A stretch of DNA of 64,000 bases, taken from positions 49,972,001-50,036,000 of the forward strand of contig NW_027266264.1 of assembly GCF_022045235.1 (NCBI RefSeq), read 5' to 3'. This DNA is from Haliotis cracherodii. Lineage: Eukaryota. Shown one piece after another: positions 18,151 to 63,351 of this stretch. A program made the translations under genes and the position numbers. Position 1 is the stretch's first letter. Each line of letters begins with the position of its first letter. The notes under the pieces were generated by a model, which saw nothing but the letters and a program-made list of their open reading frames with translations, did not search any database and had not been told where the DNA came from.

Positions 18151-19867
18151 TACATATATATAAAGAATTATGTAATTTGGTTAAGGTTTCACTGGCTTTT
18201 ATCCTTGCGAAGATGAATCGTAATGAACTGAAAGTCCACATATAGTTTCAAATCATGATTTCGTGTTCCAATGTTCATATTATAAATACTTAGTTATTAT
18301 CAATATCAAAGTACATGTGAATAACATAACCTTAGTAGATCTAGCATAATACGAAATGGAAGTCATGATATTGGCATTTTGCTTAAGGATGAACTACCTT
18401 GTATCATACTGTGGCATGGTAAACACTCTGCTTTCCATTTTGGGTTATGCGTTTTCTTACGTTATCAAACTACTGCAGGTATTATAATTTAGTGTTCTGA
18501 TTCATTTTCATGACAAATGTACATATATACATGTACGTACACTACTTACACATGAGTTAAATGTACATATGTATGTACACTACTAACACGTGAGTTACCG
18601 AACGCATACATACATCCGATAATGCCTTCACGTACATGTACGTGCACCCTACATTGACATTATGCAAGTATAACTGAGAACAAAAGTTTGTTTTTTTCGG
18701 CAATCTCGTCTTTCCCTTTCATTGAAGCTCAGTTATCTACAAAATTCCAAAATGTTCACCCTTTAATATTCAAGCATTAATAATTATCTCAGAATTGAAC
18801 CATCAAATCCTTAAAATCTTCGGTAGCTTGTAGAATGTACATTATTAATTAACCCACTATCTGTTTCAATTTGTTTTCGTGTCTATCTACGAATACCAAA
18901 CACAAACGTTCATCATGACTACTATCTGAATAGTTGAAATATTTGAAGTTTATACAGAAGTATTGTTCAAAGCGTTGTTAATAAAAAAGATATTTACTCG
19001 CATATTAACTCACTCACACTTACTGATGAAGATGGAGAATAGGATTGTGTTGAGTTTTAAAAGTCGATAAGCAGTGACAGTAACCGAATCAACGACCCGT
19101 ACATATAAGTAAGTTGTTTAATGTCGCTCGAGCCTTTATACGATTTTAGGTGTCATGATAGTCGAGAAAGCAAATTATCTTTGTTTTTTCATTGGTTCCT
19201 TTTCAAACACTACTTACCCCGTTGGCATATGTTTTTCGTGCCATTGAATGTGTCAACGTTATGACATTAACGGGATTTTCGCTCCTAGTAAATATCAGGA
19301 CAATATATGGGTGTGGCACTTAAATATACATTTTACTGATACTGGTTGTATGGATTACAAGAATTATTACTCTTTTGAAAATAGATTCCTATATCGGTAT
19401 GTAGACAACTCCTCCCTGTCGAGGATATAAGACATAGACACTTTAGATTCAAATTCGAAATTCCTTATACATGGGAATGTCACGGTTACTAGTGTATGGT
19501 CTTCCCTTATTAATTTCGCTACCATTCACTGGCCACTGTTTCGCGAATGTAGTAATATCACACGCATCAAACAGAGTCAATGGTGTGAATGGTTCGGCGT
19601 ATACATGACTAGGGATAATACCTGCCCTACTTTCGGCTGATGTTCGTATCAGACGTTATTTCAAAAGAACTGAGATGGTGATTAATTTTGCACTTTTCAG
19701 TTGACAATGAGCTCGATGTATATCTTATATCTAACGCTGTGCCAATTACCTTACTATTCTGTATTACTTTACAATAGTCGCTGACCTATAGTGGTGTTCT
19801 TTTACAGAGAATAAATACAAAATGTTAAAATATCTGAATAATTGTTATTTCGAATTACAATACCTGG

Positions 19868-20374
19868 GTGTTTCCAAGGTGCATACATGAATTCAAATCG
19901 CCTATACGCGAACGTTCATACATACATGAATACCTCACACTCGAATGGTTTGGCGGTTTCCAGGATGCATACATGAATACCTCACATTTGAATGGTTTGG
20001 CGGTTTCCAGGATGCATACATGAATACCTCACACTCGGATGGATGGGTGGTTTCCCGAATGCATACATGAATACCTCACATTCGGATGGATGGGTGGTTT
20101 CCAGGATGCATACGTGAATACCTTACACTCGGATGGATGGGTGGTTTCCCGAATGCATACATGAATACCTTACACTCGGATTGATGGGTGGTTTCCCGAA
20201 TGCATACATGAATACCTCACACTCGGATGGATGGGTGGTTTCCAGGATGCATACATGAATACCCTACACTGAAATGGGTGGGTGGTTTCCAGGATGCATA
20301 CGTGAATACCCTATACTGGAATGGGTGGGTGGTTTCCAGGATGCATACATGAATACCTCACACTCGAATGGGTG
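19868..20374. repeat. 47-bp minisatellite (~10-11 copies)
   Basis: Unit GGATGCATACATGAATACCTCACACTCGGATGGATGGGTGGTTTCCA; period 47 (19961, 20008, 20055). Confidence 0.95.
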
Positions 20375-21062
20375 ACAGATATGGTAACTGAGAACTTGCT
20401 GCACAAATTTCTGAGAAACAATATGTGAAAGAAAATTACCACTTCAGGGAATTGATATGATTTGCGATGATTGATTCATCATTTCTTTATTAATTCTTAT
20501 GCCTGTTTAGTCTAAACAGGGGTAAAGTGCATAGCACAACAGACTCACTGATATGAAATAAATAAACAAACTACAAATAGGTGTATTATTCCATGTTGTC
20601 TTGAATATATATATGTACATATCGGGGCAGGTCAGAATAAGATACGAACTTGCCTGTAGATCTGTAGAATCAATATTGCCCATATGATCGGACATTAATT
20701 GGCCTGAGACCCAGTGTCCATAAGGTACACATGTACAGAAGCTAACTTGTGGAGTGCTCGGGCGTAATTTGCAGACAAACGTTCCTCAATGTGATTTAAT
20801 ACTATCAGATGACCCATCAGAGGTAAGGATAAAGACTTTATAAAAGTGCCTCAATATATTATCCCGCTTATCGTGTTCAGGCTAGCGATATCTGATCAGC
20901 CCCAACAGAACCAGCTGTCTCGTATATGTTTTAGTTATTCATTTGCTCTCAGTTTCGGTATATGGCTTGACCGATTGTGTAGTTTTATAAGCAAATCCAA
21001 AGAAGAGTCTCGGGGTATCCGAAAGGTTATTCATTGCTGATAAAAAATACACTTTCGGCTGA

Positions 21063-21172
21063 AGTGAGTGAGTGAGTGAGTATGGTGTTACGCCGCTTTT
21101 AGCACTATTCCAGCAGTATCACGGCGGGGAACACCAGGAATAGGCTTCACACATTGTACTCATGTTGGGCAT
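21063..21172 (-). mobile_element. SINE family A, 5'-truncated
   Basis: (GAGT)n tail, TTACGCCGCTTTTAGC...GGCTTCACACATTGTAC. Confidence 0.85.
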
Positions 21173-22899
21173 CATCAGCAGTGTTTAGCTATATAAATTC
21201 TCCTTTTCATGTTTCTCCGGTTCACATTTGTACATCGCGTCACATGTTCCTTATTTCTTCATTATTCACTGGTCAGTGGTTTCATTTTTGAAAGCATGTT
21301 CTTTTATTCTAAGGCTATGTGTTGCAGCTATTTAACATTCCAACGAAGACACAGCGTGTCCCACAAATCAGTTTACTCATTATCGGCAACACATTCCCTA
21401 GACAATCTGTATTCATCACAACGAGAAGCGTCAGAACGATTAGATTGATATGACGTCGTAGAAAAGCGTAGCAAGGAAGAGGAACGATTCCGCGTTAAGT
21501 GGCGCTAATGTGCATCATGGACGGTGTAAACAAACCTCAAGGAGTTTATTCTGCCATCACGAACGACCTCTTGAGTGTCTTTCCGTACCAGAAGTGACGT
21601 TAACGATTTATGTGTGGTCGACACCAATACATGTTTGGCTTTGTGTTTTGTTCGCTGGAACATCAGATGAGATTCAATTAACTTTAACTTCTAGCAATCC
21701 GTCCCATTGTTTTTTATTAAGCAACGTCTGACTTCAAGATCACTATGGATTAATCGGTAACATGAGTAAGCCGATTTCAGGTGTGTTGTTTGCTCCTTTC
21801 GATCAGGTATTGGTTGTGACTAGAAACACACAATATGAGGTTCGGAAGGTTTTCATGAACGTTGAAAAGATGGACAGGACACCCACGGAGATTATCAGTG
21901 ATACATGAATGAATGTTGTAGACATTAACGTCGTCTAGAAAACAATAACCCATCATAAATCTCGTATGTTTATTGATGGCAAAAACATTACGATCATGAA
22001 AGACAGTGGCAACGTCAGAGTTCCCCACGTTATCAAAACGTTATCAACCTTTTTCATGCTCTGTTCATCACATAATTCTTATTGACCCTAAAACCACAAC
22101 ATGACCTTTAAAAATACCGGGGGTGAGATGATGGCTCAACAAAAAACAAACATTTTTTGTCTACATGCTAAGCTCATTTTTCAGAGTTTGTGTCAATGTC
22201 AGTGATGAACAGTGTACACAAAAGGCATATATATATATATCCGGATAAACTTTCCCTATGGTCCCTAGTATGAAGTCCCATTTTTGGTTGCTGGTGATCT
22301 GTAGCCCGTTTTTATAATGTAATGTTTTGAATCTGTGATACGTTAGTTGCTTTGCTGTCCACTGTCGACAGGTGTTTATATAGTCTAAATGTATTTAAAA
22401 AAGGACGTAATTTGTCCTTGTCAAGTCATTGCTGAAATATTCCCGCTGTGACTTTGTCTGCTGACTTTGCTTGGATACCTTAGCATTGTTACACCCTCGC
22501 ACAATGGTAAGTCGACATTTGGTGTACAGACACATCATGTTCGGAACACAAAGACGTTTAACGTTCAAATGTCGCAGTCTGTCAATAATACAACTGCAGC
22601 CTACGGCATCAGTTTATACTCTTCCATCATCCATATTGAAATACCGCGGTGGACAGCTTACCTTCATTAAGCTTAAGAAAACCCTAAAAATATACTCTTT
22701 AAAAAAGGTAGGGGATATCTGGATATACCTTAAAATTTCCTAAATAATAAGAGATGTTCGTTTTTAGTTATAATATTTTGATAATAGTGAACGGATTGGG
22801 AACACATTATACCCGGCAGTGACGTAAGACAGTAGATGTTATGACCACCCACGATCTTAAAGGACGAAATGGGTAAGATGGGAAATTTCAAAGTTGAAG

Positions 22900-25972: not shown

Positions 25973-26546
25973 CTATGTGAAGCGCATTCTTCGTTTTACC
26001 AATCCTGATATTAGCTAGAATATCGCTTGAAGCTATGTTACACCCTACTAACTCAACCATTCAGTCGAATGACCCCTTGGATTAGAGAACGTTAACTGAA
26101 TCAATCATCATAAAATACATATAGCATAACCCGACTGACATATAAGTACTGACAGGTAGTTCGGGCGTTGTTTAACGTTGCTGCGTTATCTGATTTATTG
26201 AACGGTAGTTGAGAAATCAGAGCGTGATTTGTTTTCACTATTTCTGTCCACATATTATCTTGTTACCATGTGTTCGCTGCCCCTTTGACACTTAAATAAC
26301 AGTACCCAGAATTATACATGTATATAGATTAGGCACTTCAATGAACATTTTACAGATTATATTGGTATTATATCCAGCTATGTGTTTTCTGTCCATCGTG
26401 TCCATCGTGTTGTGACAGCATCATCCCTTTGTTGTCACACCTACCAATGTTATCCCACTCATGTATGCTATTGTTGTTACTGTTAATCCTCTACTGTTAA
26501 TCCTCCACCTACTATATATATTCTGCACTATGTCCCTCATTCAGTC

Positions 26547-26615
26547 CCGTGTGCGAAATACGCATCAGTCGGAAAGCGCACGTTAAATCTCCAAAGTAAG
26601 TAAGTAAGTAAGTAA
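26547..26615 (+). mobile_element. 69-bp retroposed 3' fragment with (AAGT)n tail
   Basis: 11-bp TSD CTCATTCAGTC at 26536-26546 and 26616-26626. Confidence 0.8.
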
Positions 26616-26625
26616 CTCATTCAGT

Positions 26626-26666
26626 CTTGCTTGACAACGGTATAAGGATATATACCGAAACGTCAC
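26626..26666 (+). ncRNA. Minimal hammerhead ribozyme-like motif (PLE type)
   Basis: TTGACAA-C-GGTATA-AGGATA-TATACC-GAAACGTC; palindromic ACGT stem III and GTC triplet intact; stem II covaries with the 11.2-kb copy. Confidence 0.62.
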
Positions 26667-27169
26667 TTTTCACAGTATTAAAGAAGTTGTTATCCATAAA
26701 ATTGTGTCTATCTTGATTATTTTGGTGCGGATTACAAGTACTCTCATGTGAAGGATGACTGGTCGAGCCCGCTTTAAACTGAAATAACATTATATAGACA
26801 GTTCTTCCACGTAGAGCCATCGAATCTGAGATAGAGACACAGACACAATTAATTCGAAACGATGTTATTATTCATAGATCTACAATGTGCAGAATATATT
26901 ACTGTAGTTACTATATGACTAGTACCATGATAGCATTTCCATTCCGGACATGGTATTAGTATCTTTACTTCATAATTTCATATAATATAAGTATCATGGT
27001 ATATGGATTTTTATTTAATACTTTCATATGATATAAGGAGGGACAATCTGTCATCGATTAAAATCACCCATGAATAAGAAATATACAACCGATCATGGAA
27101 GCGATAGCATTACAGTTGGGAAACACCAATCTCACAAACTACATGCAAGTGCTTACTATCTGATATATG

Positions 27170-27661
27170 TGCAAATGAGATCACCAAGCAAGAACTGCTT
27201 TTTATAAACCCATATGGACATAAACCTGTATTATCTAACGTTACGAATACGTTGAAACAGATGAACATGTTGTTCAATGTGTGGATGTTTCTGCAAATGA
27301 GATCACCAAGCAAGAACTGCTTTTTATAAACCCATATGGACATAAACCTGTATTATCTAACGTTACGAATACGTTGAAACAGATGAACATGTTGTTCAAT
27401 GTGTGGATGTTTCTGCAAATGAGATCACCAAGCAAGAACTGCTTTTTATAAACCCATATGGACATAAACCTGTATTATCTAACGTTACGAATACGTTGAA
27501 ACAGATGAACATGTTGTTCAATGTGTGGATGTTTCTGCAAATGAGATCACCAAGCAAGAACTGCTTTTTATAAACCCATATGGACATAAACTTGTATTAT
27601 CTAACGTTACGAACACGTTGAAACAGATGAACATGTTGTTCAATGTGCGGATGTTTCTGCA
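27170..27661. repeat. 122-bp tandem repeat, 4 near-identical copies
   Basis: Unit starts TGCAAATGAGATCACCAAGCAAG; ORF-track starts are 122 bp apart (27343, 27465, 27587). Confidence 0.97.
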
Positions 27662-28579
27662 CACAAACATTGCTTAAAAACATAACGCCGTCTCGAGAAC
27701 ACCTGGCATATTTATAGTGACTCATAAACACGTGTATGATATAAACCTAAATCGTACAATGGACTCTGCTTCAAACTAATTTCTTATAATTATTGAAACG
27801 TTTATCGGTTTTATTCCAAAGTTATAAAAAAAAATATATTATGAATGAAATAACGTCTTACCTGTATTTTAAGAATGGCATAATATGGCACCTGTGTTTC
27901 CGCATCATAAATATCAGGAATGAAAAATACGTACACGAGCCAATCTCACCAGTTCAAGGTATCAGAGAAAGGATTCTAGCTTAACTGAAGAACTGAAAAA
28001 CATCAATAATTGTCTGTTTTTGTCAGATGAGTGTTCACAGCTTTACGCGTTTGTCCTCAAAGTACAAATGTATCTGGCGTGAATGTGTTGGCGTAATAGC
28101 ACATAACGAGATAAATCCTCCTCCACTTTTGTTAAGGAGACATGGTTTTACACGAACTGCAAAAACATTATTAAGTTTTGACTTTTCAGTTGGAAAAGCG
28201 TCATACACAGTTCGAAGGATGTCCAGACATCTACTGTTGCGTCAGCTGCATGTCACACTATGTTTATTACTTCAACATTCGCTTCGTCTTCGGTGTATCA
28301 TAAGATATTTCATTTTACTCTGAATCAAAACACAAGATAAGTAAACTTTTTTTAATGAAAGAGTACCGAATACTTTAATACTGTAATACTTTAAGTAGGT
28401 GTTTCAAAGATGCAAACATGAACATCGTATTATACACGAACCGGGGGGTATATGACTCATACACGAACGAGATGGGTTTCAGGGATGCGTAATTACATAA
28501 AACATATCGACGAACGCGCCGGGTTTCAAGTGTGCATACATGCATACATATGACGTTTAGATGAACACTGCGAATTTCA

Positions 28580-28825
28580 GTGAGTGATTTGGGTTTAACG
28601 CCGCATTGAACAGTATTCCAGTTATTTTGTAGAGTGTCAGCTTGGTGTGGGAGGAAAGCCCAAAGTGATGCAGGTCCTAGACGTTTACGACTTTGATGAA
28701 ACCCATGAGCACGGGTATGGTGCTGACAAACATATAAACATAATCAGGGCGAACCGGGAATCGAAAACACAATCATACCTTTCTGGTATGGCGTGCCCAC
28801 GGGACCCAACTCTGCGAACGGCAAG
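28580..28825 (-). mobile_element. SINE family D
   Basis: Reverse-complement match to 432-612 (TGTGGGAGGAAAGCCCAAAGTGATGCAGG; AACCGGGAATCGAA) plus the shared TTAACGCCGC tail. Confidence 0.75.
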
Positions 28826-28872
28826 TTCCAAGGATGCATATACTAATGCCTAAGTAAAACAAACGGGTTGAG

Positions 28873-29165
28873 GCCGCCTCCGTGGTCTAGTGGTAGAGGG
28901 TGGCGATCGGCATTTAAGGGGATAAAAACAAGGACTGGTAATTATAAGCTTGGAGTCAGTATATGTGTCTGCGTGGTGTATTCATGTTAAACTGAGGCAT
29001 GGTATCTTAGTGGGCTGGCATATACAATCGTCATTAGTCAGGAATAGTACAAGCAGGCACACACACACACACTAACACACACACGTGCATGCACGTCGCT
29101 AGATAATTTATGAGTGCAAAAATCTTGAACATGACGTTAACTCCCCATTGCACCTCACATCACCT
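28873..29165 (+). mobile_element. SINE family C, internally deleted
   Basis: GCCGCCTCCGTGGTCTAGTGGTAGAG head, GGCATGGTATC, (CA)n, CACCTCAC tail. Confidence 0.8.
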
Positions 29166-29613
29166 CAGACATAGCTCACGCTCTCAATAAATCTCACGAT
29201 TTCTTCATCTGCTTATTTGTCGATATCAGAGTACATAACCGCCTCTATATTGAATGCATTATGCGTTTTCTCTTGTGGCAAATATTTCTTAAAGGTTCAT
29301 TATCGGTATTGCACACTCGTATCAAATTGCAATCAATCGCTCATTGAAGATACAAATCACGATTACGTCTCTTCTTAGGGTCCTCCGAACTCGAGTAGAA
29401 AATTACATTACGATTATGTAATGTTAGCCAGCATATTTAAAGACTTCATGTGTGGCTTGGAGCTTTTAGTCATATGCAGAAGAAAGAATTGCATTAGTTC
29501 ACATAATTACATAACTTAACGTTGATAATGTGATGTTCGATGCAGGATTCATTGTGTTTACTTTGTGTGTTTTTTCAGAATCGCTTGAGCTTTGTCTTAG
29601 TCTTTGAAAGAAG

Positions 29614-29867
29614 ATCATACCTTTGCACTGACAATCATAAGTGACACTATGCATATGAAAGGTGAACTTTCTGCATCAATTCCTTATTGTTGAGGACAAG
29701 ATGCGATTCACGTTTCTATCTACTTTCACATGCAAGTTTCATCATACCTTTGCACTGACAATCATAAGTGACGCTATGCATATGAAAGGTGAACTTTCTG
29801 TATCAATTCCTTATTGTTGAGGACAAGATGCGATTCACGTTTCTATCTACTTTCACATGCAAGTTTC
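29614..29867. repeat. 127-bp tandem duplication
   Basis: ATCATACCTTTGCACTG... at 29614 and 29741; about 2 mismatches. Confidence 0.95.
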
Positions 29868-30029
29868 GTACTCAAAACATTGAGAAACATGCAAGGTAAC
29901 CAACATTGTTTGACGTAGACTCAGAAATATCACCGATGTAAACAAGCTACAAATATGTGTATTTCACATAACATCGTGAGCGTATTATAGTCGTATATGT
30001 GGTAACATGACAGCGTGAGATAAAAAAAA

Positions 30030-31860
30030 TGCTGATAGATCTGTAGAATTAATAGTGCCCATGGCGTTGGACTTTAATTGGTCTTGGATCCAGTTTCCAT
30101 GAGGAGCTAAGCAGCAGTGTTCTTAGCGTAATCTGTAGCATGCAAACGTTCCTCAATGTGATTTAATACTGTGAGTTGATGGAACTAAAGCCTCAACAAA
30201 TCCACCTGCTTATAATCACATGCTGTGTCATGCCCAAGTTAACGACATGTTATTCCCCACAGTTTTCTCGTATCTCCACTTGTTCCATCATTTGTTACAC
30301 TCTGATGTTGTGGGGGCATTGTTTACCCATGTATTGTATGAGACTAGATCTGTCAACAGAAGAATATCGAAATGTTTTGTCGTTATGTTTCAGGAAAGGA
30401 ACAACACATTCCACTTAAGGCGGACATCTGTAGCATCCATACGTCATTCGGTGTGTTTTGCTCCTATCATCCGATAGAGCCATCCGAAGTTAGATTTAAT
30501 GAATTTGCTATATGCACGCAGCCGCAATATGCCATCCTGGTGTTTCGTATTGGTTGGTTAGTATGATGTTTTACGCCGCACTCAGTTTGTCTCGTATTGG
30601 TTCTTAGTCCTCTAGTTGTTGCGTTCTTATATTTCGGTGGCATGGGTTGACCAATGGCGTACTTGTTTCACTAACGTTCGAAAGAAGAGCCTCGTAGGGC
30701 GCTTTATTCTAATCTTGGGACTTCAGAAAAAGCACGTTTGGCTGAATACAGGTCAGTGAAATAAATGGACAAATATTTCATATCATTTCTATAGCTTTCC
30801 TCATATTCAGATTGTCAGAAAATACATTTCGGTGACAGTAATACACTTCCTGGAGCAGTGTCAGAGCAGTGAGAAAGATGTGACGTCGTAGACGGGTGTA
30901 ACAAGATCAGAACAAATGTGGCGCTGCATTATAGGCAGCATCAATATTTTCGACCTGCCCCATGTCAGTCCAAGCAGAAACAGCTATTAAGTAGTTCATG
31001 TATTCCTTCATTCTTTAGTATTGTGGGATCATGTCCTGACATACATGGTTTCGTTTCTTTGAGACTGTATAATTTAGTAGAAAAGTATCGATGTCCAAAA
31101 TATGAAGTAAAGTTGACAGAACATTTCTTCAGCTCCATGTACAACGCGTACACAGTTGCTTTTGAGAGAATTGCACTCTTGTACGCATTTAGCTATTAAA
31201 TTAGTTTGATATCATATATCGCAGAAAAGTGGATCATGAGCTTCAATGAGTGTGTGTTGCCTTCAGGTGTTTCCGTACCAGAAGTGACATGATCGTCTGC
31301 AATATAAGTTTCTTTTGGTGTTTTGTACCCTGGAAAATCAGATGAGATTCGATTAACTATTACTTCTTGCAGTCCAACCCACGAGTTTATATTCACCAAG
31401 GTGAGGCTGCTAGATCGACTCTACAAGAATTAATCTGTAATGGAAAATAGCCGATTTCAGGTGTTTGTTCTGTTAATCAAGTATTGGTTGTGACGTGGAA
31501 CATGCAGCTATGGTTTTCATGATCTTTGAACGGATAGACAGGACACCTACGGAGAATATCAGTGATACATGAATCAATGTTGGGGACATTAATATCGTCT
31601 TGAACAGAAAAAAAACCATCACAAGTCTCATACAAGATATTGATGGCACATAAATATGACGATTATGAAAGACAGCAGTCATGTCAATGTCCCTATTCCA
31701 CCACGTTATCAAAACGTCATTAGTCAAATGCATCAACCTTTTTCAAGATCTGTTCATCACACCATTCTTTTGATCCCTTTCAAAATACCGAGGACGAGAT
31801 CATGCCACATGCCTAAAAAGGTATTTTCGTCACCATTTTCAGCTCATTCTTAGATTGTGC
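30030..31860 (+). pseudogene. Decayed multi-Ig-domain gene, copy G2
   Basis: RSVELIVPMALDFNW...NVPQCDLIL; SDEIRLTITSC...FIFTKVRLLD...LICN...NQVLVVT; QPFSRSVHHTILL; 15-nt and 6-nt in-frame indels relative to G1. Confidence 0.55.
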
Positions 31861-32149
31861 GTCAGCCATTGTCAATACTTTTTTAGTAACATAGCGTAAA
31901 CGGGTGACAAAATGCACATATTTACCAATACAGTTGTAACACAGATACGTCACAAGCTGGTTTCACTGAGTGTATGTATTTCAGCGTTAGATCTAACTTT
32001 TTGCCTCCTGCCTATTGCCATACAAAAACATGAACTTTTAACATCGACCGATTTCAATTTGATATACATGGAAAATGTCACATTAGTCCATGGCGCGTTC
32101 CGTGGTTATCAAGGAAACCGATAACGTTTTATTAAGACCCGCACGGTGT

Positions 32150-32400
32150 TGTAAGTTGTAAATGGAGAATCCAATCAAGCCTATGGCGTTCGTTTTTATG
32201 GCACGAGGAATGTATATAGCTACCACGTATCTACCAGAGTTGATTGATATTAGACTTACATTACGAGCGTCTAATGGTATTACCAAAGCGACCGTCGTTG
32301 ATAGAAAACCACGAAAACAGGACCCTTAAGGAAATACATGGTACAGTGAGAATTGGGTTACAAAAAAAGACGAAAAAAACACATTTTTTTCGTATCGTCA
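32150..32400 (+). pseudogene. Ig V-set-like N-terminal fragment
   Basis: TYITSV*WYYQS (WYYQ at 32275-32286); homologous to 34560-34700 and 44690-44800. Confidence 0.45.
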
Positions 32401-32601
32401 TCATGAGAATTCTAACATTCATACACATTTGTGTGAACACTAGTTGTTCGCGAAAAGGTAACCGTATCCTGTCGGTGGCATCCATCTCTTACCATCATTC
32501 AACTTGGCTGGTTTACCGTAATGCGAATCGATAGATGTTCGCCTTATTTCATAGAAAGTATACCTCGCAGAATCGTAAACCTGGTTATGCCTTTGAAAAT
32601 T

Positions 32602-32830
32602 GTGTTTGTTGTTTAACGTCGCACTCAGCAATATTCCAGCTTTATGACGGCGGTCTGTAAATAATCGGGTCTGAACAGGAAAATCCATGACAATCATGAG
32701 CATTGGTCTACGCAGTTGGGCTACGATGACATGCATCAATCTAGTCAGCGAGCCTGACCACCCAATCCCGCCCCTTACAATAAGTATGGGTTGCTAAAAC
32801 CTATGCTGACCCGGAATGTTACGGGATCAT
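32602..32830 (-). mobile_element. SINE-like family B
   Basis: TTTAACGTCGCACTCAGCAATATTCCAGC...GTCAGCGAGCCTGACCACCC. Confidence 0.85.
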
Positions 32831-34539
32831 ATCTTTCAAATATATACTTGCTGCACCACATTGATGCCATCCATCAGTACCTTGCTCTTAATTTTTTAAG
32901 ATTATACTTTGGCACAAAAATTGTAAATGACACCAGGAATACGGATACTCACTGCTACGGGCGTCATTAGTAGCCTTAACGTTAATTTTCACTTAAACAT
33001 TTTGTAACGACATATGGGAGGTGTGATTAATATTTTAATGTTATTTTAATGTAACAGTTAAAGAGTGGAAACATGAACATGTATAATATTTAACGTAGTC
33101 GCACTAACGTAACCTACTCAAACACACTACAAATAAATATATCTCACCTCAAAGATAGAGCCTTCCAAGATAAGGTGTATAAAAGGGTATCTGTTCCCGT
33201 AGTGAAATAGTTTCTTCGTACTTTATTTCCATGGAACAGTTTTACAAGGAAGTTTTTTCAACGACACATTTACTCTGGCAATATTTGTTCCAGATGGAAC
33301 TAATTCCATGTGGAACTGATCATCGTTGACATCTGGACAGTGGTATATGACCTGAATATAATCCCTTGCTTATCATGTTCGTGGTAACGCCATGCAGCCC
33401 TGACAGAAACAGCTGTATTGTGTCTCTAGACAATCCCACATTCGTTCCCCTCCAGTATTATTTTAGACACAACTTGATTAATAGTTTCATGATACCGTAT
33501 TATTCATTTGAAAAGTGTAAACGTGTACAATAAATTGTTATATATAAATATGATATCAGAAAACAGCTATATATAAGTGAATATAGCAATTGTGGTGTTG
33601 TTGGATGTTTTTCCCTATTATCTGGATATCTATGATCATAGTAGCATAGATAGCCAGTATGTGCATCGAAAAGAGGACAGCGTGAAACGTGTCGGTACAG
33701 ATGCTATGTGTTTGTGCAGTAACGACTCAGCACAAATTAACATTGATAACATATACGTTCTTTACATGCAAACTTGAAACAGAGTTTTCATTTATAGTTC
33801 CATAATATATATATCTGAATGTGATTACAGTCTTACGCATGCACCAATGTTACATAGTTTGACCAGGCTGAAAACGTAAGGAACAACTGTTCATATTGAT
33901 TACCAGTAACACGGTATGTGTCTTTGCTGGTTCATAAAACAATGACAAGGAGCTATGATCATTCTCGCAAGCACCAATTTGCCTGCATAAGACTCGGTTA
34001 TGTGCAGGCCGCCGTCAGATGTCTTTCAGATGGGAACACTGATCAACGCGGAGTTACAGTAATACTAGTAATAAATAAGCATGTAGAATTCGTGTACATG
34101 ATTATAGAGAGCTGTTTTGTATTATTTGCCCTTCCTTGATCATAATGATTTTGTCAAAATAAAAAAAAACGATTTTGCAGGTAAACAACAATCAGCAGAT
34201 TCCACCGCTTTATCCGTGGTTGACTTTAAAAGCATATTTTAAGTTAATTTCATCAATTTTTACTCAAAATCCACATTGATATCCCCACCACCCAAACCCT
34301 CACACACATCCGCACACACATCCAAACTTCATGTGCATTTGATTCATCTCCTTTGATGAATATTGCCCAACAGCATAAGTACCTTCAATGGATATCAGTT
34401 TAAATTCCATATACAAGGAAAATGGCAAGATTACATCGCAACAAAATCAATGCAGAACGGAGTGGCTCCATTTGTGCATTTCGTGTGTATCGGGAGAACG
34501 ATTACTTTTGATTAAAGAACATGAGGTGTTACAACATTT

Positions 34540-45020: not shown

Positions 45021-45179
45021 TGTGAGTTTGGTTTAACGCCGCTTTTAGCAATTCCAGCAATATCACGACGGGAGACACCAGAAATGGTCTTCACATATTG
45101 TACATATGACGGGAATCGGAACCCAGGTCTTCGGCATGACTTGTGAATGCTTTAATCTCTGGGATACCCGACCGCCCCC
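45021..45179 (-). mobile_element. SINE family A
   Basis: 11-bp TSD AAATGGTGATG at 45010-45020 and 45180-45190. Confidence 0.92.
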
Positions 45180-45279
45180 AAATGGTGATGAATTAACTAT
45201 TTTCTATTGTTCATATTTTATGCTCATGTATTAGCAAATTTTCAATATACCCCCTGAGCATTACGTGGCGCAACGATGC

Positions 45280-47786: not shown

Positions 47787-47950
47787 GGGGCGGTAGGGTA
47801 GTCTCGTGATTAAAGCCCTAGCTCGGCACCGCGAAGACCCGGGTCCGTTTCCCCTCATGGGTACAATGTGTGAAGGCAATATCTGGTGTCCCCGCCGTGA
47901 TATTACTGGAATATTGCTAAATGCGGCGTTAAACTCAATCACACACTCAA
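47787..47950 (+). mobile_element. SINE family A
   Basis: GGGGCGGTAGGGTAG...ATGGGTACAATGTGTGAAG...GCGGCGTTAAACTCAATCAC. Confidence 0.88.
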
Positions 47951-50439
47951 TCAGTAATGCACTACTACCAGAATCGTCAGAACGATTACAATCATGTGAC
48001 GTCGTAGAAAAAGCGTAGCAAGGACGAGAACAGATTCTACACAAAGTGGCGCTGATGTGATTCTGCCCCAAGAAGCTTATTCACTTGAGTGTGTTTCCGA
48101 ATCAGAAGTGACATTAGCAAGTTCTGCGTTGTCGAATCCAATAAATGTTTGCCTTGCTGTTTTGTTCGCTGGAACATCAGATGAGATTAAATTAACTATA
48201 AGTTCTTGCAATCCCTCCTGGAGGTTTGTATTAAACAAGATAGGCTGATAGATCGACTCAAAAAGAAGTAATCTGTTACACGAACAAGCTGATTTCAGGT
48301 TAGATGCTTGTTTCTGTCAGTGACGTATAGGTTGTGACGAGGAACAAACATGTACGAGATTGAAAGGAGGGGATCAATGTTGGGGTTACTAGTGTAGTCT
48401 ACAACAGAATAATCCATCACAAATTCCGTACAGGATATTGATGGAACGCAGAACTATACAGAACATTGTGAACGTCCCATTTCGAACACTTGTCATCCTA
48501 TTCCCCTTTGATGGATATTTGCATTGGTCTGTGACACTTACTTTCAGCTTGTGTGTCAGCTATTTTAAAAGAGTCACGGTAGTCTGACGTAAACGGGTTA
48601 AGAATGCAGATTCTATTTACCGATACGTTTGTATCTCAGATACGTCACGAGCTGCTTTACAATGTGTACTTCCTCTTTAGATAAGTCCTTTATCCTGCTT
48701 CATTCTCTTTGATACTTTAGCATTTTTACACTCTTACTCGTTTCTATTCCCGTACTATTTGTCCAAACTCTTTCAAAGTTCATCAGTGCGGGGATCTTTT
48801 AGTGGTGTGTGCTTCAGTTCTGTTTCGGAACGCATTTACACAACCATCAAAGGCCTCTCTCTGTCAATAATAGACTGGCGTACTCAGAAATGCTACGTAA
48901 GTTCATTCTGTAATGTGTTGCAGTCAGAGACATATCCTGCTCTTCCCTCATGTCTGAACGCACCGTGAGATCTTTGCTTTTTGTCTTTGATATTAAAAGA
49001 AATGTCAATTGTAACACAATGGTTGTTTCAGACAGATTATCCTCGTTTAATGTGTGGGCGTCATACTGAACATTTCATCAAAGTTTCTCATACTTCCTGG
49101 ACCTTTGAAATGTGATGTATATTTGTTGGACAATCATTGGGAATAGAAATAAGCTAGATGGTAATTAGATAAAGAGCATTCTACTTCAATGGGTATATTG
49201 ATTCCAACGAGATGCATACATCTAGTTAAGATTACATAATAATATGCCCGCGCGCTAATAGGAAATACCCCTGCGGGTACGAGTAGGCCGATAGTCTAAT
49301 GCTCAGCGATTTGCAGTGGTGAGGGGAACCTATTAGTCGTATAGGATCCGTCGGTCTTGGCTTTGTATCCGAGAAGTCCTTTGATTTGGTATTTTGTTGA
49401 GGCTGACTATTAGTTCAGTCAGTGCTTCAAGAATACCGTGTAATGTCTCTAAGAGGATGAAGCATCTAACACATTACTTATTGTGGATATGGATAAATTT
49501 GTAAAAACTGTGTTTTATTCCAGGATTTTCGGGAACAAATAACATTTGTAACACTTCAAGCTTAATAATTGTTTTCTACATTGTATTTCACGGCGACTTG
49601 CAAATAATCAGCTCTTGATCAGGCAAACAAGCAGCTGAAAAATGAACAGCGAGCTACGGCAGGATAGCACATTAACACAAACATACTCAAGACACACATT
49701 ATACACACCCGGCTCTCATGTTCGTCACTCCTTGTGACTGGGATACTTATTTTAACTATCCTAATAGGAATATGCACATGAATGTCACGTCCGTGGAATG
49801 TAATCAGTTTCTTTTTTTTATGTTTTCATTAAAACATGTAATAGTTTTCTTACATGTATTTTGTATTATTGGGCTCAACGATGCCACTGATTTCGCATTG
49901 TTGTGCACAGTTTTTGTGTACATAGTTAATCAAGCAGTCTATGAAGGTATTATTGTGGACGTGTTTATTTAGAAGAAGTAACTTCAATATCCTTTCGCGC
50001 TTAAGAGTTATAAACGTGAAAACACGTGCGAACACTACCACTGGAAGGAATAATTACAAAGTGTGCAGATCGGTTTCTACGTTAATGCCTCCATAAACGC
50101 AAAGGTATTGATCTGTATTTCAATACACAATTGACATATAAAATCATTACAAATACAACGTAGCATGAATTCAGTGTGAAATATAACATCAATATTTGTT
50201 GATAAATGTATTTTACATAACTTGTATATCTTTCACATCAGGTGATAGCCCTATATTACGATGATATAATTATACACCCCCAAAAAGTATGTAATACTAT
50301 TGATGTACATGGTTATAAAAGTTGTTTGTTATGACGATCCCTTTATAACGTACACTCAAAACGGCCACAGTCATAGTAAGAATGTCTCACATTTTGAATA
50401 TTTAAAACAGGGCGATGGAGTACGTGACCTCGTGGACAA

Positions 50440-50600: not shown

Positions 50601-51431
50601 GGTGAGAATTTGGTTTTTACACGGCTTTGGTTTGTCAGGTTATTGTGGGAGGATAAAACTAAAGTCTGTGGCGTTACCCTCAAGTATGATGTCCATGAGG
50701 TAAATGTATGATTCGTATGCACCATCTCAGGACTTTGCGCCATCGGGAAATGTGGCGCCTTAGACGACTGGGTCACCCGTCTCCGAAAAAAATGATATGT
50801 GTTTAGTTGTCACTACACACAGTTATACGCCTGATAGTACATGTTGTAGGGTTAAAACACATTGAAGGTTATAAAGGGGGAAGGACTAATACTCGAAATG
50901 AAAGTGTAGAGAAAGGGATTTCCTTTGCGGCATAACAAATGTGCTTCAGCTGTGTTTCACAATGCCAGCTAGACAGTTGTCTGGTGATGAACACTAAAGT
51001 ATTGTTCATTTCAAGACTGCTCTAAAAACCTTAGCAATGTTCTTTGAAATAAAGTGTTTGGATCAACAGTGTCCCATGTGGAACAGACAACCTACGCGTT
51101 CATTATTATTCATCGACAACTTACACATAAAAGACTAAATTATTCTTAAGTAAGAAGTCAGATGCAAATTCCTTCTTGTAAATCTCAGACGAAATGCTTT
51201 CACATGCAAGATCTGATCTGTTTTTCTGGATACATAAAATCATTTTACGTTGTGATCCCCAAAGAAAGATATCTCGACATGACGTGATTATTATCCAACC
51301 TTTTCCACATTGACATCTAACGGAAGGGAATCGTCTAATGATTTTAATCAGAATATGAAGAAGATAAAGCGTTGATAATAACAAGTAACAGTGCGTGAGT
51401 TGCCACCGTGTCAGCGTGTCAGCCCCACTTG

Positions 51432-51575
51432 AGGGAGTGATAGGGTTTTACGCCGCCCAAAATAATATACCAGGTATACCACTACGGGGAACACAAGAAA
51501 TGGGCCTAACACATTGTAACCATGTGGGAAATCGTAACGAGGGAACGCTTTGACCACAAGGCTGTCACTCCACCC
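51432..51575 (-). mobile_element. SINE family A, old; insertion shared with G6
   Basis: TTTTACGCCGC...ACAAGAAATGGG...GAACGCTTTGACCACAAGGCT; same position as 60786-60940. Confidence 0.8.
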
Positions 51576-52195
51576 GAAAATCCGAGGATCGTAAACACAT
51601 ATAAAAGTTTGGTGAAATCACGAGTGTAATGAGAAGAATGGACACAGTGTGCTCTTTCAGTTGATGTCACAGGAAGTATCAGGTAGTGTGAAGACAGGTC
51701 AACAATTCTGACTCCCTTGCACATGGATCGTTATGCTTCCCTTTTAAGTTTCCACGGCTCGGTCGGTTTTCAACCCAAGTGTTTGAAGCTTTAAACAAAG
51801 CGACCTATCACACTACAGCAGAATCACGGTGATTTCCCCAATGAGGATGAAAGCGCCACTCGCGTATTATATCACATTTCAGTCAATCACACTAACTGAT
51901 CTGTCCAATTGACTTACACGTTAGAGCAAGTATCGCGACAACATAGTGGTCAGTGTTCATTATGCTATGTGTCTGTGATGAGGGATTTTGTTTACAAATA
52001 TATGGATCACTGATAACATGACCAGCTGGGGAGATTGTTGGGACTTAACGCCGCTTTGATCATTGTTTCAGTTAAATGAAGACGTGTCATCTTAATTTTC
52101 AGGAAATGACAGTCGAATACATTCACAACGAGCACGAACAACGCTTGATGACTGAAGGATCATGCATAGGACTGACTAATGGATATTAATTTTCA

Positions 52196-52375
52196 NNNNN
52201 NNNNNNNNNNNNNNNNNNNNNNNNNNNNNNNNNNNNNNNNNNNNNNNNNNNNNNNNNNNNNNNNNNNNNNNNNNNNNNNNNNNNNNNNNNNNNNNNNNNN
52301 NNNNNNNNNNNNNNNNNNNNNNNNNNNNNNNNNNNNNNNNNNNNNNNNNNNNNNNNNNNNNNNNNNNNNNNNNNN
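52196..52375. other. Assembly gap (N run)
   Basis: 180 N. Confidence 0.99.
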
Positions 52376-52399
52376 GTGTTTGATCAACAAAAGCCCGTT

Positions 52400-53900
52400 G
52401 TCACGTGCCTCTCAATGCCAACAAACAACCTGTGACCAATAAACAGTAAGATCACCCGTCAAAATGAGAGTATTTAACAAAACCTGAAACGTCAAATAAT
52501 CGAGAAAAAATTTTGTTTTCCAAAAAACCCACTCTTAGCAGCGTGTATGTGATCCACGTGATGCGATCACAGCCTGGCACTGTCACCCCATGCCCCTAAT
52601 AAGTGTTTGGATGGTTGCAAAAGGCCCACTCTTCAGAAAGAGCATTGCCGGGTTCCTGTAGACATCGGCATCAACGACCCTGGCACGATGAGCTCGTGCG
52701 TTATCGTCCATGAGGGTGAAGTCCGAATGCACCAGTATAGGGCCTCACGCCCTCAAAGTAATCCCTGTAGCGACCCGTGAAGATTTTGGGGTAGAATTAT
52801 AGGTCGCCACCAATCCATGTTTGCCGTAAAAGGCGACTATGCTTGTCGTGAGAGGCGACTAACGGGATCGGGTGATCAGGCTCGCTGACGTGGTTGATAC
52901 ATGTCATCGATCCCAATTGAGTGGGTCAATGCTCATGATATCAATCACCGGGTTGTATGGTCAAGACTCGATTATTTATAGACCGCCGTCAATGTAGCTG
53001 GAATGTTGCTGAGTGCGACGTTAAGCAACAAACAAACCAAACCAAGCCATCCCTGCAGTGCACACCTGTCAGCGTGCCCCGCTGTAGGACTTGGCGATCG
53101 GTTCTTCCAGATCCACCGATCCAAACCCAAGTAATGATTGAACCCCCTCCAAGGCGGTCATGTTTCGGCTACGTTGGAATCCTGAAAGCCACGCTCGGAC
53201 ACACATATGTGAAGTCTAGACAGCATCTCGATTCATCAGTGAAAGGTACTGGAGCTCAGTCCTAATCCGTCCATTTGACCTTCAGCCGAAACCGAAACGT
53301 GCCTGCCTGTGACGGGTCTCTGGGATGCGAATGAATGCCCTCCGTGACTGGAGACCAGCATCACATAGACGATTACACACTGTCTGAATAAAAGCGCTAA
53401 TGCCACTGGCGTTCCGCGGGTCATTTTTGAGTGTGGTGGTAGTCACAGGAAGAATCTTGTCTTCCCTTTGTGTAGAGGAACGCTGTCGACCATATGCATG
53501 CCGCTGCGTAGCTGATCCAAACGTCTGGCATCGACTCCCATGTCCTGCAGATCACACTTTGGTTGACGCCAAAGATGTTTGCAATGTGACGTTATGTTTA
53601 CTCAGTTCAAGCACGCATAATTCGTCGTTCGTCAAACATGTTTGACGCTGAGTGCGCATAAGTGTATTCAGTTGTTGCTGCAATCCTCAGTAGCACCTGC
53701 ATGTGATAAAGATGCGCAACGATTCTCTCACGATGCATCCCAACACGGGTTTTCAAGCACATCGTGCACATCTGGCTGCATGTCTCTGTCCGTTCATCAT
53801 GAAATTGAGGTCCTATATGAGTTATCCAATCATTGTGTTTTATGGATTGGATCAAAACTTGATCCATAGCAAACGTTTGGTATATTACTAAAACGTCATA
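52400..53900 (-). mobile_element. Tc1 transposon relic with nested SINE
   Basis: TVCNRLCDAGLQSRR; FTDESRCCLDF; DRLGGGSII; LMDDNARAHRARVV; absent from paralog G6. Confidence 0.82.
52771..53048 (+). mobile_element. SINE-like family B, full length
   Basis: GACCCGTGAAG...ATGCTTGTCGTGAGAGGCGACTAACGGGATCGGGT...GAGTGCGACGTTAAGCAACAAAC; TSD ATCCCTG(T/C)AG at 52761-52770 and 53049-53058. Confidence 0.9.
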
Positions 53901-56604
53901 AAACAAATTACAGAGTGAGGACGAGAGTTTCAACTAAACTAAATAGGAAAAGATCTATACCTCTCGGTTGATTTAATTAAATGTTTGTGAAGCGATATTA
54001 TGACCCAAAATAGACTCTACTTGCGCTACTCATTTATACACCATACTTTAATATAAAAACTATTAAAAAGAAAATGTTCATAATACACACTACTGATGAA
54101 ATAAAATAACGTGCTTTTTTAAGGTAGGGGACATGTTGTTGCAAATTCATTTCTTACTCCAGTCTTCATTGAACAAATATATTTTTTCAAAAAAATACCA
54201 AGTCACAGATTACGTTTACAAACTGTAGCAGAAATGAGTGATGGTTAAATAGACATTATCAAATTTAACAACACGTCTTTAAATTTTTAATTACCTATAA
54301 CACACACCTGGTATACTTTTTTGCACTCAGTTTGTGTCAGTTCAGTTATATAGTGACAAGATATCGATGTGATACAACTTACGCAACGTCATCAATTATT
54401 CACGACTCTCAACATCAAGAGTGAAAGACAGCAGTGACGGGCTGTCAATGCTAAATTACTTAAACGAGGTGTGTTCGAACAGGATATGCTTTACGCTATA
54501 AAATATCACAGTAAATTCGGAATGAATATGAACCACACACCCATTGATGCATGTTCGGTTGATTATATGTCAAGATGTTACAACCTAAACCGATTAATGT
54601 TTAACCGAAATCAGGATAACGACGTCGTTTAACATAGGTTAAAGGTAACCATCGAGCTATAGCCAAAGGTTTGAGGACCTGAAGTAACACGTGAAATGAA
54701 TACATGACAAAGGAAGCCTTAAGCAGCGTTTGTAATGAACGGTCGATTGTTACCTTCAGTCTAACTTCTTTTACTCAAAAGATCTCTTGTGAATCTGTTT
54801 TATATTTAACTTGACACACATATGAGGCACTGCTGTTATGATAACATGTGATTGATAACTTCTTGACACGATTGAATTGAAACGCTGCGCGACGTATTCA
54901 TAATCAAATCCCCTCTTGAATAGCAGACTTAGTATATAACGTCTTGACCCTGTAATACCTGCACTGTAATATCGGAGAATATACGACAGCTACGCGATTA
55001 ATTGCAAGGAACAATGAAAACGAAACGTAGTTTATTTCACGAAAAAACATCGTTCTATCTCATTTCTTGAGATTCTAACATGCGCTCGCAACCTTAATGA
55101 CGTCGTATATTGGAGGTAAGTGTCTTGTAAGTTGTTCCCCTTAGATGTAGCTTGGCAAGGCAGATAAACACTGTGGCGAACGATCGCATCCAGGGCGGGT
55201 TGGATACGACAATCGGTGTTTGGAGAAGAGGTACAGGTAATCAACGTCAGGATTGTAAGACTATACGGGTGAAATCCCACATATAATGCTTAAATTGGAA
55301 TTGTCCGACATGGCCGAGATAGGATTCTATTGAGGAGTCATAATTATTCCATTACGGGTAAATAGTTGTAAAGGCTGTACATTCTATTAGCATCAGGTTG
55401 TACGTTATGGTGATATCTCAGATAAGAAATAAACGACTCGTGGTCGTTATTTATCGTACAATAAAACACTGCAAGGAGCATTTGTTTGCAGAACACCTTT
55501 ATGTGGAAATTACCGAGAGCGACGTTAAACAACATAATACACTAATGGACGCTTACAAGTTTGGTGGCACCAAAGAGCATGCATGAAAACACCTCTACGA
55601 AACGCCTACGTCTTCAAAATGTTAATTATAACCATAAAAGAACCTGGTAGACTATAAAGGAAGATTCTGAGAGTGTCATCATTTTTCATGTGATTGCATT
55701 GTTAGAATTACTTTCGAACAAGATTGGTAGGATATTTCAAACACGTGTTATCACGAAAACATTTCATTACAACTTTTGCTGATATCGACAAAATGGTTTT
55801 GTTATACTGTAAACATAATCCTAATGATTTCTATTCTTTGCTCCGGTATTTAACTCACCGAATCTGGAGATTTGTAACTGGCAAAGACCATGCTTTTGAT
55901 GCTATTAAAGTAATTCAGTTCCATTAGTTACCCGGCCAGGAACCAACACATCATTCAGACAATTAAAGGGTTCGTCGAGGAGGGGATGATCAATGTAAGC
56001 CTGAAAAACAGCCATATGTTATTCGTGCCTTTTACTGTGTGTTTGTTATAAGAATAAATTGGTAACCGGAAACTAACGGGACTTTGATATAATAAATCAA
56101 AGAAATGTCGACTTCTTTGCCCTTTAGAGATAAAATCAATACCCAGTCCTGTCGTTCGTTCCTGTCATAATTCTGTATGGGATCCCAAGTTATAACTTTC
56201 TATTGGGTGCACGGGTGACCCAGTCGTCGATGGGAACGCGACTCACAAAGCAGATATGCGTTCGTTAGGCTTTGGCGTTCCCGATCGAGGGTTTGAATCA
56301 CATTGCGGAACTCACTGTGCATGAGTCGTCGACTTCAACTGGTCATCGGTTAGATTACAACGTATGGCATCCCCTTGCCAGTGGATTCCACAAGAGTGGT
56401 AACGTCGACTTTCGACTTGTGTATTTATTAGCACCTGACGCGCAGTTATCTAAAGTAGAACACTTTTCAAAGCGGCGTAAAAACCTCAATCAACTCCTAG
56501 GAAACGGTACATAAATATAACGTCAATATTCCTGACTTAGCTCTGTCCATGTTTCAAGTCAACTTAGAAGTGCATTACCACTAAACGTCGTTTCATGATG
56601 AAAC

Positions 56605-56870: not shown

Positions 56871-56938
<68 letters not shown>

Positions 56939-59911: not shown

Positions 59912-59972
<61 letters not shown>

Positions 59973-59995
59973 TACACACACAAACACACACGTAC
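59681..59995 (+). mobile_element. SINE family C with (GCAC)n/(CA)n tail
   Basis: GACCGCCTCCGTGGTCTA head, GTTCGATCCC, GCATGGTATCTC..GTGTAGCACTATAAA. Confidence 0.85.
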
Positions 59996-60785
59996 AATTA
60001 CCCATCATGTTTTGCAACAAAATTAATAACGGAAGCATGAAATACCACTTTTCCCCATGACAGGAATTTTAAAGGAATGACATGGTGAGATATGTGACAA
60101 TATTGTCTGCTAATTCACCTTGGCATCAGTTCAGGATGTCAGTAATCAACCAAACCACCTTATCAAATGAATCTCAACAAAGATCATAAAAGAATAGCTG
60201 TCGTGGGAATGACAGTTAGATCACTCACACCGTCCCCACAGTAAGACCTCTTTCGCTGTTGTATGCGTATACTCCTAAGTGTATATTGGTTCTCTGACAA
60301 ACACTCTCTATGAGCACCGTCTGTATGATGTTTATTTTCATTGATTCATCTAAACACAACAACGTTCTGATAACCTTGTGCTAAGATTCACGTTCGCTTA
60401 ATATCCGAGTACCGGTTCGTGAAAGATAGTTTTAGTGGCAACATCGGCATAATAAAAGTCCTTTTATAGACCACATTATTCTTTAATACGAAATTAGGAA
60501 GTATTCCTTCTTGTTAATCTCAGAATAAATTAATTTCTTGATTACTTAATAGGAAGGATATCTCGACATGTAGTGATTATTTTTAACCCTTCTCCATCCT
60601 GACATAATTCAACTTGTGATACGAGGCATCGTCTTCCACCAGTCAGGTCTTGCTGTGAATCGTCCGCAGATTCAATGAAAATATGAAGGCATAAGGGAAC
60701 AACTATCGATGAATGAGTTTGGGTAAACCACGTTTTCAACTACAACAGCTATGTAACGGCGATTCAGCATGTCACGTACGCTTAA

Positions 60786-60940
60786 GTGAGTGTGTGAGTT
60801 GGTTTTATGTCGCCTTTAGTCATAGTCCAGGACGGGGACACAAGAAATGGGGTTGACACATTTTAATCATGTGGTAATCGAACGTGGAAGTCTTCGGCGT
60901 GACGAGCGAACGCTTTTACCACAAGGCTATCACACCAACC
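60786..60940 (-). mobile_element. SINE family A, insertion shared with G5
   Basis: GTCTTCGGCGTGACGAGCGAACGCTTTTACCACAAGGCT; flanks match those of 51432-51575. Confidence 0.85.
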
Positions 60941-62029
60941 GGAAGTCCGGGGACCATATAAACATTATACAAGTTTGGTGAAATCACGAGTGTGAAGCGA
61001 AGGAGTGACACAGTGTGTTCTTTCAGTTAATGTCACACAAAGTATCAGGTAGTGTGAAGACAGGTCAACAATTCTGATTCCCTTGCACATGGATCGTTAT
61101 GCTTGTAGTTTCCACGACTCCGTTAATTTTCAGCCCAAGTGAGTGGAGCTTGAATAACAAGACCTATCGCACTACAACAGATTCACAGTGATTTCCCCAA
61201 TTGGGATGAAAGCGCCACTCAATGATTAAATCACTATCGGTCAATCACACTAACTGATCTGTCCAATTGATTTACACGTTAGAGCAAGTATCGCGACAAC
61301 ATAGTGGTCAGTGTTCACCATGCTATGTGTCTGTGATGAGGGATAGTGTTTACAAACATTTGGATCATTGATAATATGACCGGCTGGGGAGATGGGTGGG
61401 ACTTAACGCCGCTTTGATTAAGTTTTTAGTATGAACACATGTCACCTTAATGTTTGGGGAAATGCCAGATTCGAATACATTCACAACGAGAACAAACAAC
61501 ATGGTGGTCGTTAAAGGATCGTACACAGGACACAGCATGACTAAGTGATATGATTTTGCACAACGGGTTACTGCGCCCGAGACGACAACCTGTGTCCCAG
61601 TACTAGCAGAGTTGCAACTATATGTTTGTCACAGTAGTCATATAGTGATAAGACTAGATGTAAACCAAATTAAGCAACGTCATTCAAGTAATCATGACTG
61701 TTAACTTTCAATGCTGAATTACCTTAACGAAGCTTGCACTTACAGGATATGCCTTACGCTATTTCAAAATATCACATATAATTCGGAAATACCATGAACC
61801 AAACACCCATTAATGGATAGTTCGGTTGATTATACGTCAATATATTACAAACCTAAACCGATTAATGTGTAACGACGTCGTTTAACAATGATTAAAGGAA
61901 GCAATCGACAGATGTCCAAAGATTTGAGGACCTAAATTAACACTTGACCTATACATGACAAAGAAACACCATCTTGACACACGACACCTGTGTTTAAACA
62001 CATTGATTAAAGGTATTCCACAATCAAGG

Positions 62030-62216
62030 TGAGAATTGGTTTTAAGCGGCCCATGCTTGTCTTAAGATGATACTAACGGGATCGTGGGGTCAGATTTGCT
62101 GTCTTGGTTGATGCATGTCATTGTATCCCAAATGCGTGATTGGATGCTGTCAACCACTGGATTGTCTGGTCCAGACTTGATTATTTGCAGCCCTCCATGT
62201 TAAACACCAAACAAAC
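62030..62216 (+). mobile_element. SINE-like family B
   Basis: CCCATGCTTGTC...TAACGGGATCG...GGATTGTCTGGTCCAGAC. Confidence 0.8.
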
Positions 62217-62789
62217 AGAATACACAAAAGAACTCTTAGAAAGAACGCTCATACGTATATCTCGATTGAAATCCATCTGAATGTTACATATAATCTACAA
62301 AAAAACTGGTATGATATAAAGGAAGCTTCTGACTACATCACATTATATGAGATTGCTTTCGAACAAGATTGGGGATATTTTTGACACGTGTTATCAAGAA
62401 AACATATTTCATTACAACTATTGCTGATACCCACAATTATTTTGCCATACTGTAAGAACAATCATAAAGTCTCTGTCATTTATCTTATTTGCTTTGGTAT
62501 TAAACTGAGCTAAACTGGAGATGTGTGAATTGGCAAAGACCATTATTTTGATATATTAAATTTATTCAGACCCATTAATAACGAAAAATAAAAGGCTCGT
62601 CGAGGAAGTCTTACCGGGTCTTTGATACATAAATCAAAGAAATGACGACTTTGCCCTTTAGAGATAAGACCAACACCTTTTCGTTGAAAAATGAAAAAAT
62701 ATTTCTTTCCTGTCACAATTCTATATAGGATCTCAGTTATAACTTTCCATAGGGTGCACGGCCGACCCAGTCGTCAGTGCAGGGGTGCA

Positions 62790-62970
62790 TTCCATAGGCG
62801 TTCCAGAAAACTATGATCGAGTGTTTGAACCACAGATTCGCCGCCTGATGTTTCTAGGTCAGTTCCAAAGACATGCATCACTTTGGGCTTTCCTCCCAGT
62901 TCACACTGACACGACTTGGTGTAACTGAAATCCTGGCCACTAGGGTATTAAATAAAACGCTCTCTTTACT
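62790..62970 (+). mobile_element. SINE family D
   Basis: ATGTTTCTAGGTC...TGCATCACTTTGGGCTTTCCTCCCA matches 505-567. Confidence 0.7.
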
Positions 62971-63351
62971 CTGTAGGCATTAAGTACATGTCTTTTATGG
63001 AACGGCAGTGGCCAAGTCATCTTGGCCGCAGTGCATAGAGCCATTACAGGTTGTACGTACCCGAGTCATTTCCTTCAACTGGTCGTCGATGAGGTTACAA
63101 CGTTTGGCGTGCCCTTGCCAGTAGATTTCACAAAAGTGGTCGCGTCGACATTCGACATATGTATGTTGCGCACAGAGACGTTAAAGCCTTAATCAACTCC
63201 TCGGAAACTCTACAAAACTATCGAACATAAATATAACGTCGATTATCCTCACTTAAATCTGTTCATTTTTCAAGTCACCTCAGTGATGTATTTCCACAAA
63301 GCATCGTTTCACGATGAACACAACTTCACACGTTTTATTTATGATGATAAA

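Follow-up and report, generated by a model that had tools for sequence, protein, structure and literature searches.

An array of decayed tandem duplicates of possible immunoglobulin ancestry in Haliotis cracherodii

What gave rise to the duplicated blocks in a 64,000-nt stretch of the Haliotis cracherodii genome (NW_027266264.1:49,972,001-50,036,000, forward strand, within a 1.18-Gb genome; hereafter the window)? A sequence-only reading had proposed the remains of a lineage-specific family of at least six receptor genes, each encoding several immunoglobulin (Ig) domains. We find a repeat array of ~44 kb in which two units recur in tandem in decayed form, five times (unit 1, group 1) and twice (unit 2, group 2), giving seven copies. 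The explanation we cautiously favour is that the array derives from one or two long-dead genes of the immunoglobulin superfamily (IgSF) that were tandemly copied mostly after their death. The locus itself is an ordinary pseudogene-type duplicate array whose ancestry is uncertain. An earlier literature on it was not found, in a search with poor coverage of subscription papers.

Self-comparison of the window revealed colinear homologous blocks on the + strand, located where the sequence-only reading had placed them. A tile-by-tile profile search assigned five units to group 1 (19.1-48.7 kb) and two to group 2 (51.1-63.3 kb; Table 1), and traced the homology into DNA upstream of and between the motif blocks. 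Recurring blocks had been correctly recognized in group 1, yet its make-up is not four copies plus a fragment but the five units A, B, B', C and D. Block identities between copies range from 0.47 to 0.88. DNA homology of group 1 to group 2 was not detected, and part of the homology within group 2 consists of relics of short interspersed elements (SINEs) common to both copies. Interspersed and tandem repeats make up ~39% of the window, and of its three N stretches one lies inside copy E. All 12 peptide motifs quoted in support of Ig domains can be read letter for letter in + strand frames within the blocks; the succession of Ig-strand signatures in their expected order, however, is a composite, since the motifs stem from different copies and frames.

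Divergence among the copies left no codon signal. A period-3 pattern of mismatches was absent from all 15 pairwise copy alignments (p 0.055-0.88), and indels in multiples of three, to which the sequence-only reading had drawn attention, are not enriched over the 15 alignments (35/161, or 35 of the 88 indels of at least 3 nt; p=0.12); nor did the copy alignments give any sign of purifying selection during copy divergence. Lesions recur between copies: two motif-frame stops and a SINE at a corresponding site are common to E and F, and one stop, also in the motif frame, is common to A and B. Copy C is contained in 17 DNA runs from four organisms, and in the other organisms it is ~4% different, with further indels (four runs compared). 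RNA runs were not listed among the datasets containing copy C, which has no bearing on expression. For copy A, a codon test was confined to 710 bp (21400-22110) in organisms A-D; 32 of the 40 listed differences were kept, some of them being alleles within organism A, and eight were dropped as derived from paralogous contigs. The 32 comprise 8 synonymous and 24 non-synonymous differences (expected synonymous share 0.24), with two new stops between organisms and one stop not common to all, a codon pattern that matches the expectation without selection in this comparison with three related organisms. Both elements of a pseudogene test, disabling lesions and neutral evolution, were found, the codon part coming from these 710 bp. 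As a separate observation, this segment of copy A is ~2.8% different in organism C, with no indels listed, next to ~4.4% and many indels for copy C (p about 0.02-0.04).

The copies are dead, neutrally decaying tandem duplicates, largely copied as dead DNA, and the array had rightly been described as decayed and restricted to a lineage. The further claim, birth-and-death evolution of no fewer than six receptor genes, finds no support in copies that diverged without codon signal and share stops. A true receptor family, with six or more copies that were each functional for a while and underwent birth-and-death diversification before dying, is improbable. It draws on the preservation of motif blocks, which are better kept than their neighbours in the same pairs (A/B, 0.70 versus 0.51-0.56; E/F, 0.88 versus 0.77, p=1e-6), and on Ig gene clusters that contain pseudogenes or vary in copy number, as described in Hydractinia (PMC9546547) and pearl oyster (PMC9646362). 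Early selection may lie behind the higher identity of these blocks, but the 0.88 of the E/F block, the best kept in that pair, fits gene conversion because the same block carries shared stops. Missing codon periodicity, a missing excess of in-frame indels, and the stops and SINE common to copies likewise speak against such a family.

So does the failure to find a living paralogue of the array in the genome, where searches by DNA, protein and pattern scored the best candidates only and distant paralogues may escape; the genome-wide look for intact paralogues proposed by the sequence-only reading thus yielded none. With the same scope, no array copies were found elsewhere in the genome, nor were there any in the 200 kb on either side of the window, and dispersed copies, as expected of an interspersed transposon family, were not found. 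When 58 real Ig exons served as tblastn queries, no sensible match resulted, and 20 further Ig loci, long-frame ones included, gave none. A degenerate pattern had two matches outside the array, against 5 in the control, and these were attributed to chance. The same holds for weak own-genome matches on contigs C56, C6 and C17, and an intact Ig gene upstream of the window was ruled out as parent of the array.

To judge by its start and reading frame, the array likely had a coding ancestor. An ATG context recurs by pattern in copies B', C and D and aligns in copy A, and a simple hydropathy score places the starts of A and D in the top 0.5% and 2.1%, respectively, of ATGs in 464 kb for likeness to a signal peptide. 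Over 21400-22110, one + frame contains 7 stops, and the remaining five frames contain 14-17 each. A transmembrane segment common to the copies, as expected of a type I surface receptor of the nectin/CADM/nephrin kind, was not seen. Both the stop-poor + frame and the signal-peptide-like start, at an ATG whose position homology fixes, argue against the alternative that tandem segmental duplication copied non-coding DNA, or else a dead gene of non-Ig type, and that the Ig motifs are chance picks from many frames and copies. This alternative, which we regard as possible though rather unlikely, is favoured by homology that includes the flanks and by general coding tests that gave weak results on + (p 0.04-0.95 over six blocks) and in one block did equally well on the minus strand. 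It is also favoured by the outcome of every database search, all negative, and by control pairs that match the profile scores a few percent of the time; the landmark spacings stand against it, as they fit in both groups, between which DNA homology is not detectable.

These scores and landmarks are what points to Ig domains. Models were built from the H. cracherodii genome's own Ig exons. A first whole-domain scoring was non-significant; broader models gave three motif blocks + strand scores of 5.8, 3.3 and 1.6 bits, and six other blocks scores between -3.9 and -15.6. Shuffle-based p values for these scores were discarded as too optimistic beside real-sequence controls. Scored as single sequences, the blocks of D and E came 116th and 145th among 4416 windows under one model; the other model did not place them near the top. 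Under a tandem model, copy E scored 7.05 bits, which 11 of 2016 background windows equalled or exceeded, and the E/F pair scored 6.34 bits. Neither a C2 model, applied to the array blocks, nor a subfamily model of the genome's cysteine-poor V family, applied to the motif blocks, yielded a signal. As for landmarks, the two cysteines of group 2 are 79-82 codons apart (63-84 in real domains of the genome), and in copy D of group 1 ~57 codons separate Trp from Cys (39-71 in real domains). Of the Cys-Trp-Cys pin, with landmarks as in PMC9546547, group 2 has both cysteines, and Trp in copy F only; copy D of group 1 has Trp and the second Cys.

A considerable body of results weighs against Ig ancestry. 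The V-like block of group 1 lacks the B-strand cysteine, and the starts of C and B' are not signal-peptide-like by the hydropathy score. Scored windows and models were picked after the motifs had been seen. Among 80 real control pairs, 2, 6 and 7 reached 5.8, 3.3 and 1.6 bits (top 3-9%), 6 of 80 control pair-strands had a z of 4 or more, and 3 of 82 controls beat the E/F pair under the tandem model. The second block of group 1 scored poorly on + and had z=4.2 on the minus strand. When copy alignments were scored locally without a consensus, the maximum was 2.8 bits, inside the shuffle range. Simulated canonical Ig exons that died at duplication kept 6.9-44.9 bits in 24/24 runs; exons already dead before duplication ranged from -0.3 to 27.6 bits (48 runs). 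A frameshift-aware scan gave 16-22 bits for the real Ig gene upstream of the window, and no array block was among the 14 best + strand matches. This positive control is an intact multi-exon gene with three Ig domains, which we take to be lachesin/IgLON-like. On the database side, Pfam returned no Ig family for 21 long X-read frames, 13 domain-sized pieces and 135 open frames, PDB returned no match, and a search of 5.8 billion proteins brought up 334, 7420 and 95 candidates, none of which scored.

Of the remaining database results, the ESM Atlas held no usable match for two natural open frames, and AlphaFold gave both models a mean predicted local distance difference test (pLDDT) of 35, too low to show a fold. 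The sole match among 1.84 billion representatives, a bacterial repeat protein whose score was summed from six weak stretches, was rejected as spurious. All these database tests used single-frame readings or alignments, which have low power for old decay. Moreover, only 6 of 29 intact first domains of Hydractinia Alr proteins match Pfam V-set at E<0.01 (PMC9546547), and a Pfam miss is therefore expected for decayed divergent domains and does not exclude an Ig fold. The Ig identity put forward by the sequence-only reading thus found weak backing in profile scores and landmarks and none in Ig hidden Markov model (HMM) or IgSF protein matches by single-frame reading or alignment. Taken together, Ig ancestry of the array appears somewhat likelier than its absence.

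Under the explanation we favour, long-dead IgSF genes copied mostly after death, the template would have comprised one or two genes, poor in introns, that encoded a secreted or surface protein carrying V-type Ig domains. The conserved ATG, signal-peptide-like start and stop-poor + frame argue that it was protein-coding, and landmark spacing together with weak profile scores suggests that its domains were Ig. It would have had few or no introns at the examined junctions, as signal peptide and V-like block, and likewise the two domains of group 2, appear contiguous. The template probably died long ago, with most copying afterwards. Local tandem duplication produced the copies; the mosaic identities are consistent with unequal crossing-over and some gene conversion. 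SINEs, minisatellites and transposon relics broke the copies further. A present-day protein function of the array would not be expected.

The seemingly contiguous domains, in a genome most of whose Ig matches sit in open frames of about 100-170 codons, would also suit an intron-poor Ig-like gene carried as cargo by a virus or transposon, inserted once and then duplicated locally. We consider this origin very unlikely: no viral or transposon family was recognized within the unique parts, no relative of one open frame was present in viral contigs, and dispersed copies are lacking. Bolder still, and doubtful in our view, the array might be all that is left of an undescribed gastropod receptor family, poor in introns, with multiple V domains and possibly retro- or virus-derived. 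Such a family would have been lost entirely in this lineage prior to the split of at least four related organisms, with possible survivors in other molluscs. If the Ig reading is true, the locus records the complete loss of a surface-protein family invisible to annotation, and its copies could serve as probes for living relatives in other molluscs.

Table 1 Copies of the array and further features of the window, its flanks and the genome
Feature	Position	Strand	Description
Group 1 copy A	19100..22250	+	Upstream block, ATG 19477 with signal-peptide-like codons, two later blocks
Copy A lesions			Most of first V-like block deleted; 47-bp minisatellite 19921-20371; SINE 21060-21174
Group 1 copy B	26090..32010	+	Upstream block, later blocks, several SINE and tandem insertions
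Copy B V-like block, 3' end	27982-28115	+	Within 108-codon open frame 27997-28323
Group 1 copy B' (truncated)	32010..33420	+	Start, V-like block, trace of second block
Group 1 copy C	34350..37610	+	ATG 34422; V-like block 34.55-34.87 kb; second block 36.23-36.57 kb
Copy C third block	36.85-37.3 kb	+	Contains 105-codon open frame 36892-37209
Group 1 copy D	42980..48700	+	Upstream block, ATG 44529, best-kept V-like block 44.7-44.99 kb, later blocks
Copy D insertions			SINEs 45004-45192, 47782-47967; 28-bp minisatellite 45288-46852
Group 2 copy E	51130..56600	+	End of one Ig-like block runs directly into second (51.58-52.0 kb), cysteines 82 codons apart
Copy E interruptions			SINE 51430-51563; N stretch 52196-52375; inserted elements further on
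Group 2 copy F	60466..63320	+	Paralogue of E; SINE at matching site 60782-60940; cysteines 79 codons apart
Copy F stops			Two common to copy E
SINE head	3489-3560	-	tRNA-like; many copies in addition
Transposase relics	17039-17640 (DDE_3 match), 23140-23466, 53285-53551 (weak HTH_Tnp_Tc3_2)	-	Tc1/mariner type
Decayed element	39400-41200	-	Similar by eye to ORF1 of a long interspersed element (LINE); no Pfam match
Three-Ig-domain gene	~168 to 157 kb upstream of window start	+	Intact, multi-exon
Flanking open frame	L011:799-1683	+	Asn/Gln/Gly-rich; no Pfam match
Flanking open frame	L014:5847-8081	+	Secretin-family G-protein-coupled receptor
Flanking open frame	L037:5037-6083	-	Rhodopsin-family G-protein-coupled receptor
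912-codon open frame	L029:7845 into L030	+	Integrase core and OTU protease domains
Two-Ig-domain open frame	Contig C56 near 60.14 Mb (L177:3968-5095)	-	376 codons; two Ig domains and hydrophobic segment
V-set exon cluster	Contig C4 3.7-4.5 Mb (L054, L055, L062, L063, L067, L071, L076, L077)		Clustered intact V-set exons without B-strand cysteine

The minisatellite in copy D has ~55 units, and all three of its minus-strand frames are open over 409-534 codons, most likely as a by-product of the unit sequence. The tRNA-like head belongs to an abundant SINE and is the only Rfam match in the window, in which ARAGORN found no tRNA. The 912-codon frame resembles a Ginger-type DNA transposon. Elsewhere in the genome, the two-Ig-domain frame on contig C56 is unrelated to the array and, with its 376 codons, shows that this genome does have Ig genes with long exons. 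The V-set cluster on contig C4 is a living expanded Ig family.

How does the array compare with known systems? The Hydractinia Alr cluster is made up of divergent IgSF genes, 12 of its 41 models being pseudogenes, and differs from the array in having intact expressed members with one domain per exon (PMC9546547). The array, in contrast to Alr, has neither an intact member nor a selection signal, and its domains are apparently contiguous. In a mollusc, the pearl oyster, Ig-domain genes form local clusters that vary in copy number and resemble the array; unlike it, their genes are annotated, have Pfam Ig matches and often FN3 and transmembrane parts (PMC9646362). This comparison rests on gene organisation, not on sequence homology to the array.

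At the level of the domains, we presume a likeness to the V-set domains of B7/butyrophilin/CD2-like proteins: group 1 has Trp, a Tyr-Arg motif ~29 codons on and Cys 28-32 codons further, and group 2 has Gly-x6-Cys, Trp and a second Cys. Unlike such domains, the array has no match by HMM or by sequence, the first cysteine is missing from group 1, and every copy is broken. Pseudogene arrays formed by tandem segmental duplication have head-to-tail copies, shared lesions, mosaic identities, mobile-element insertions and neutral decay. While it differs from them in that no parent gene was found in the genome, the array described here displays all of these traits.

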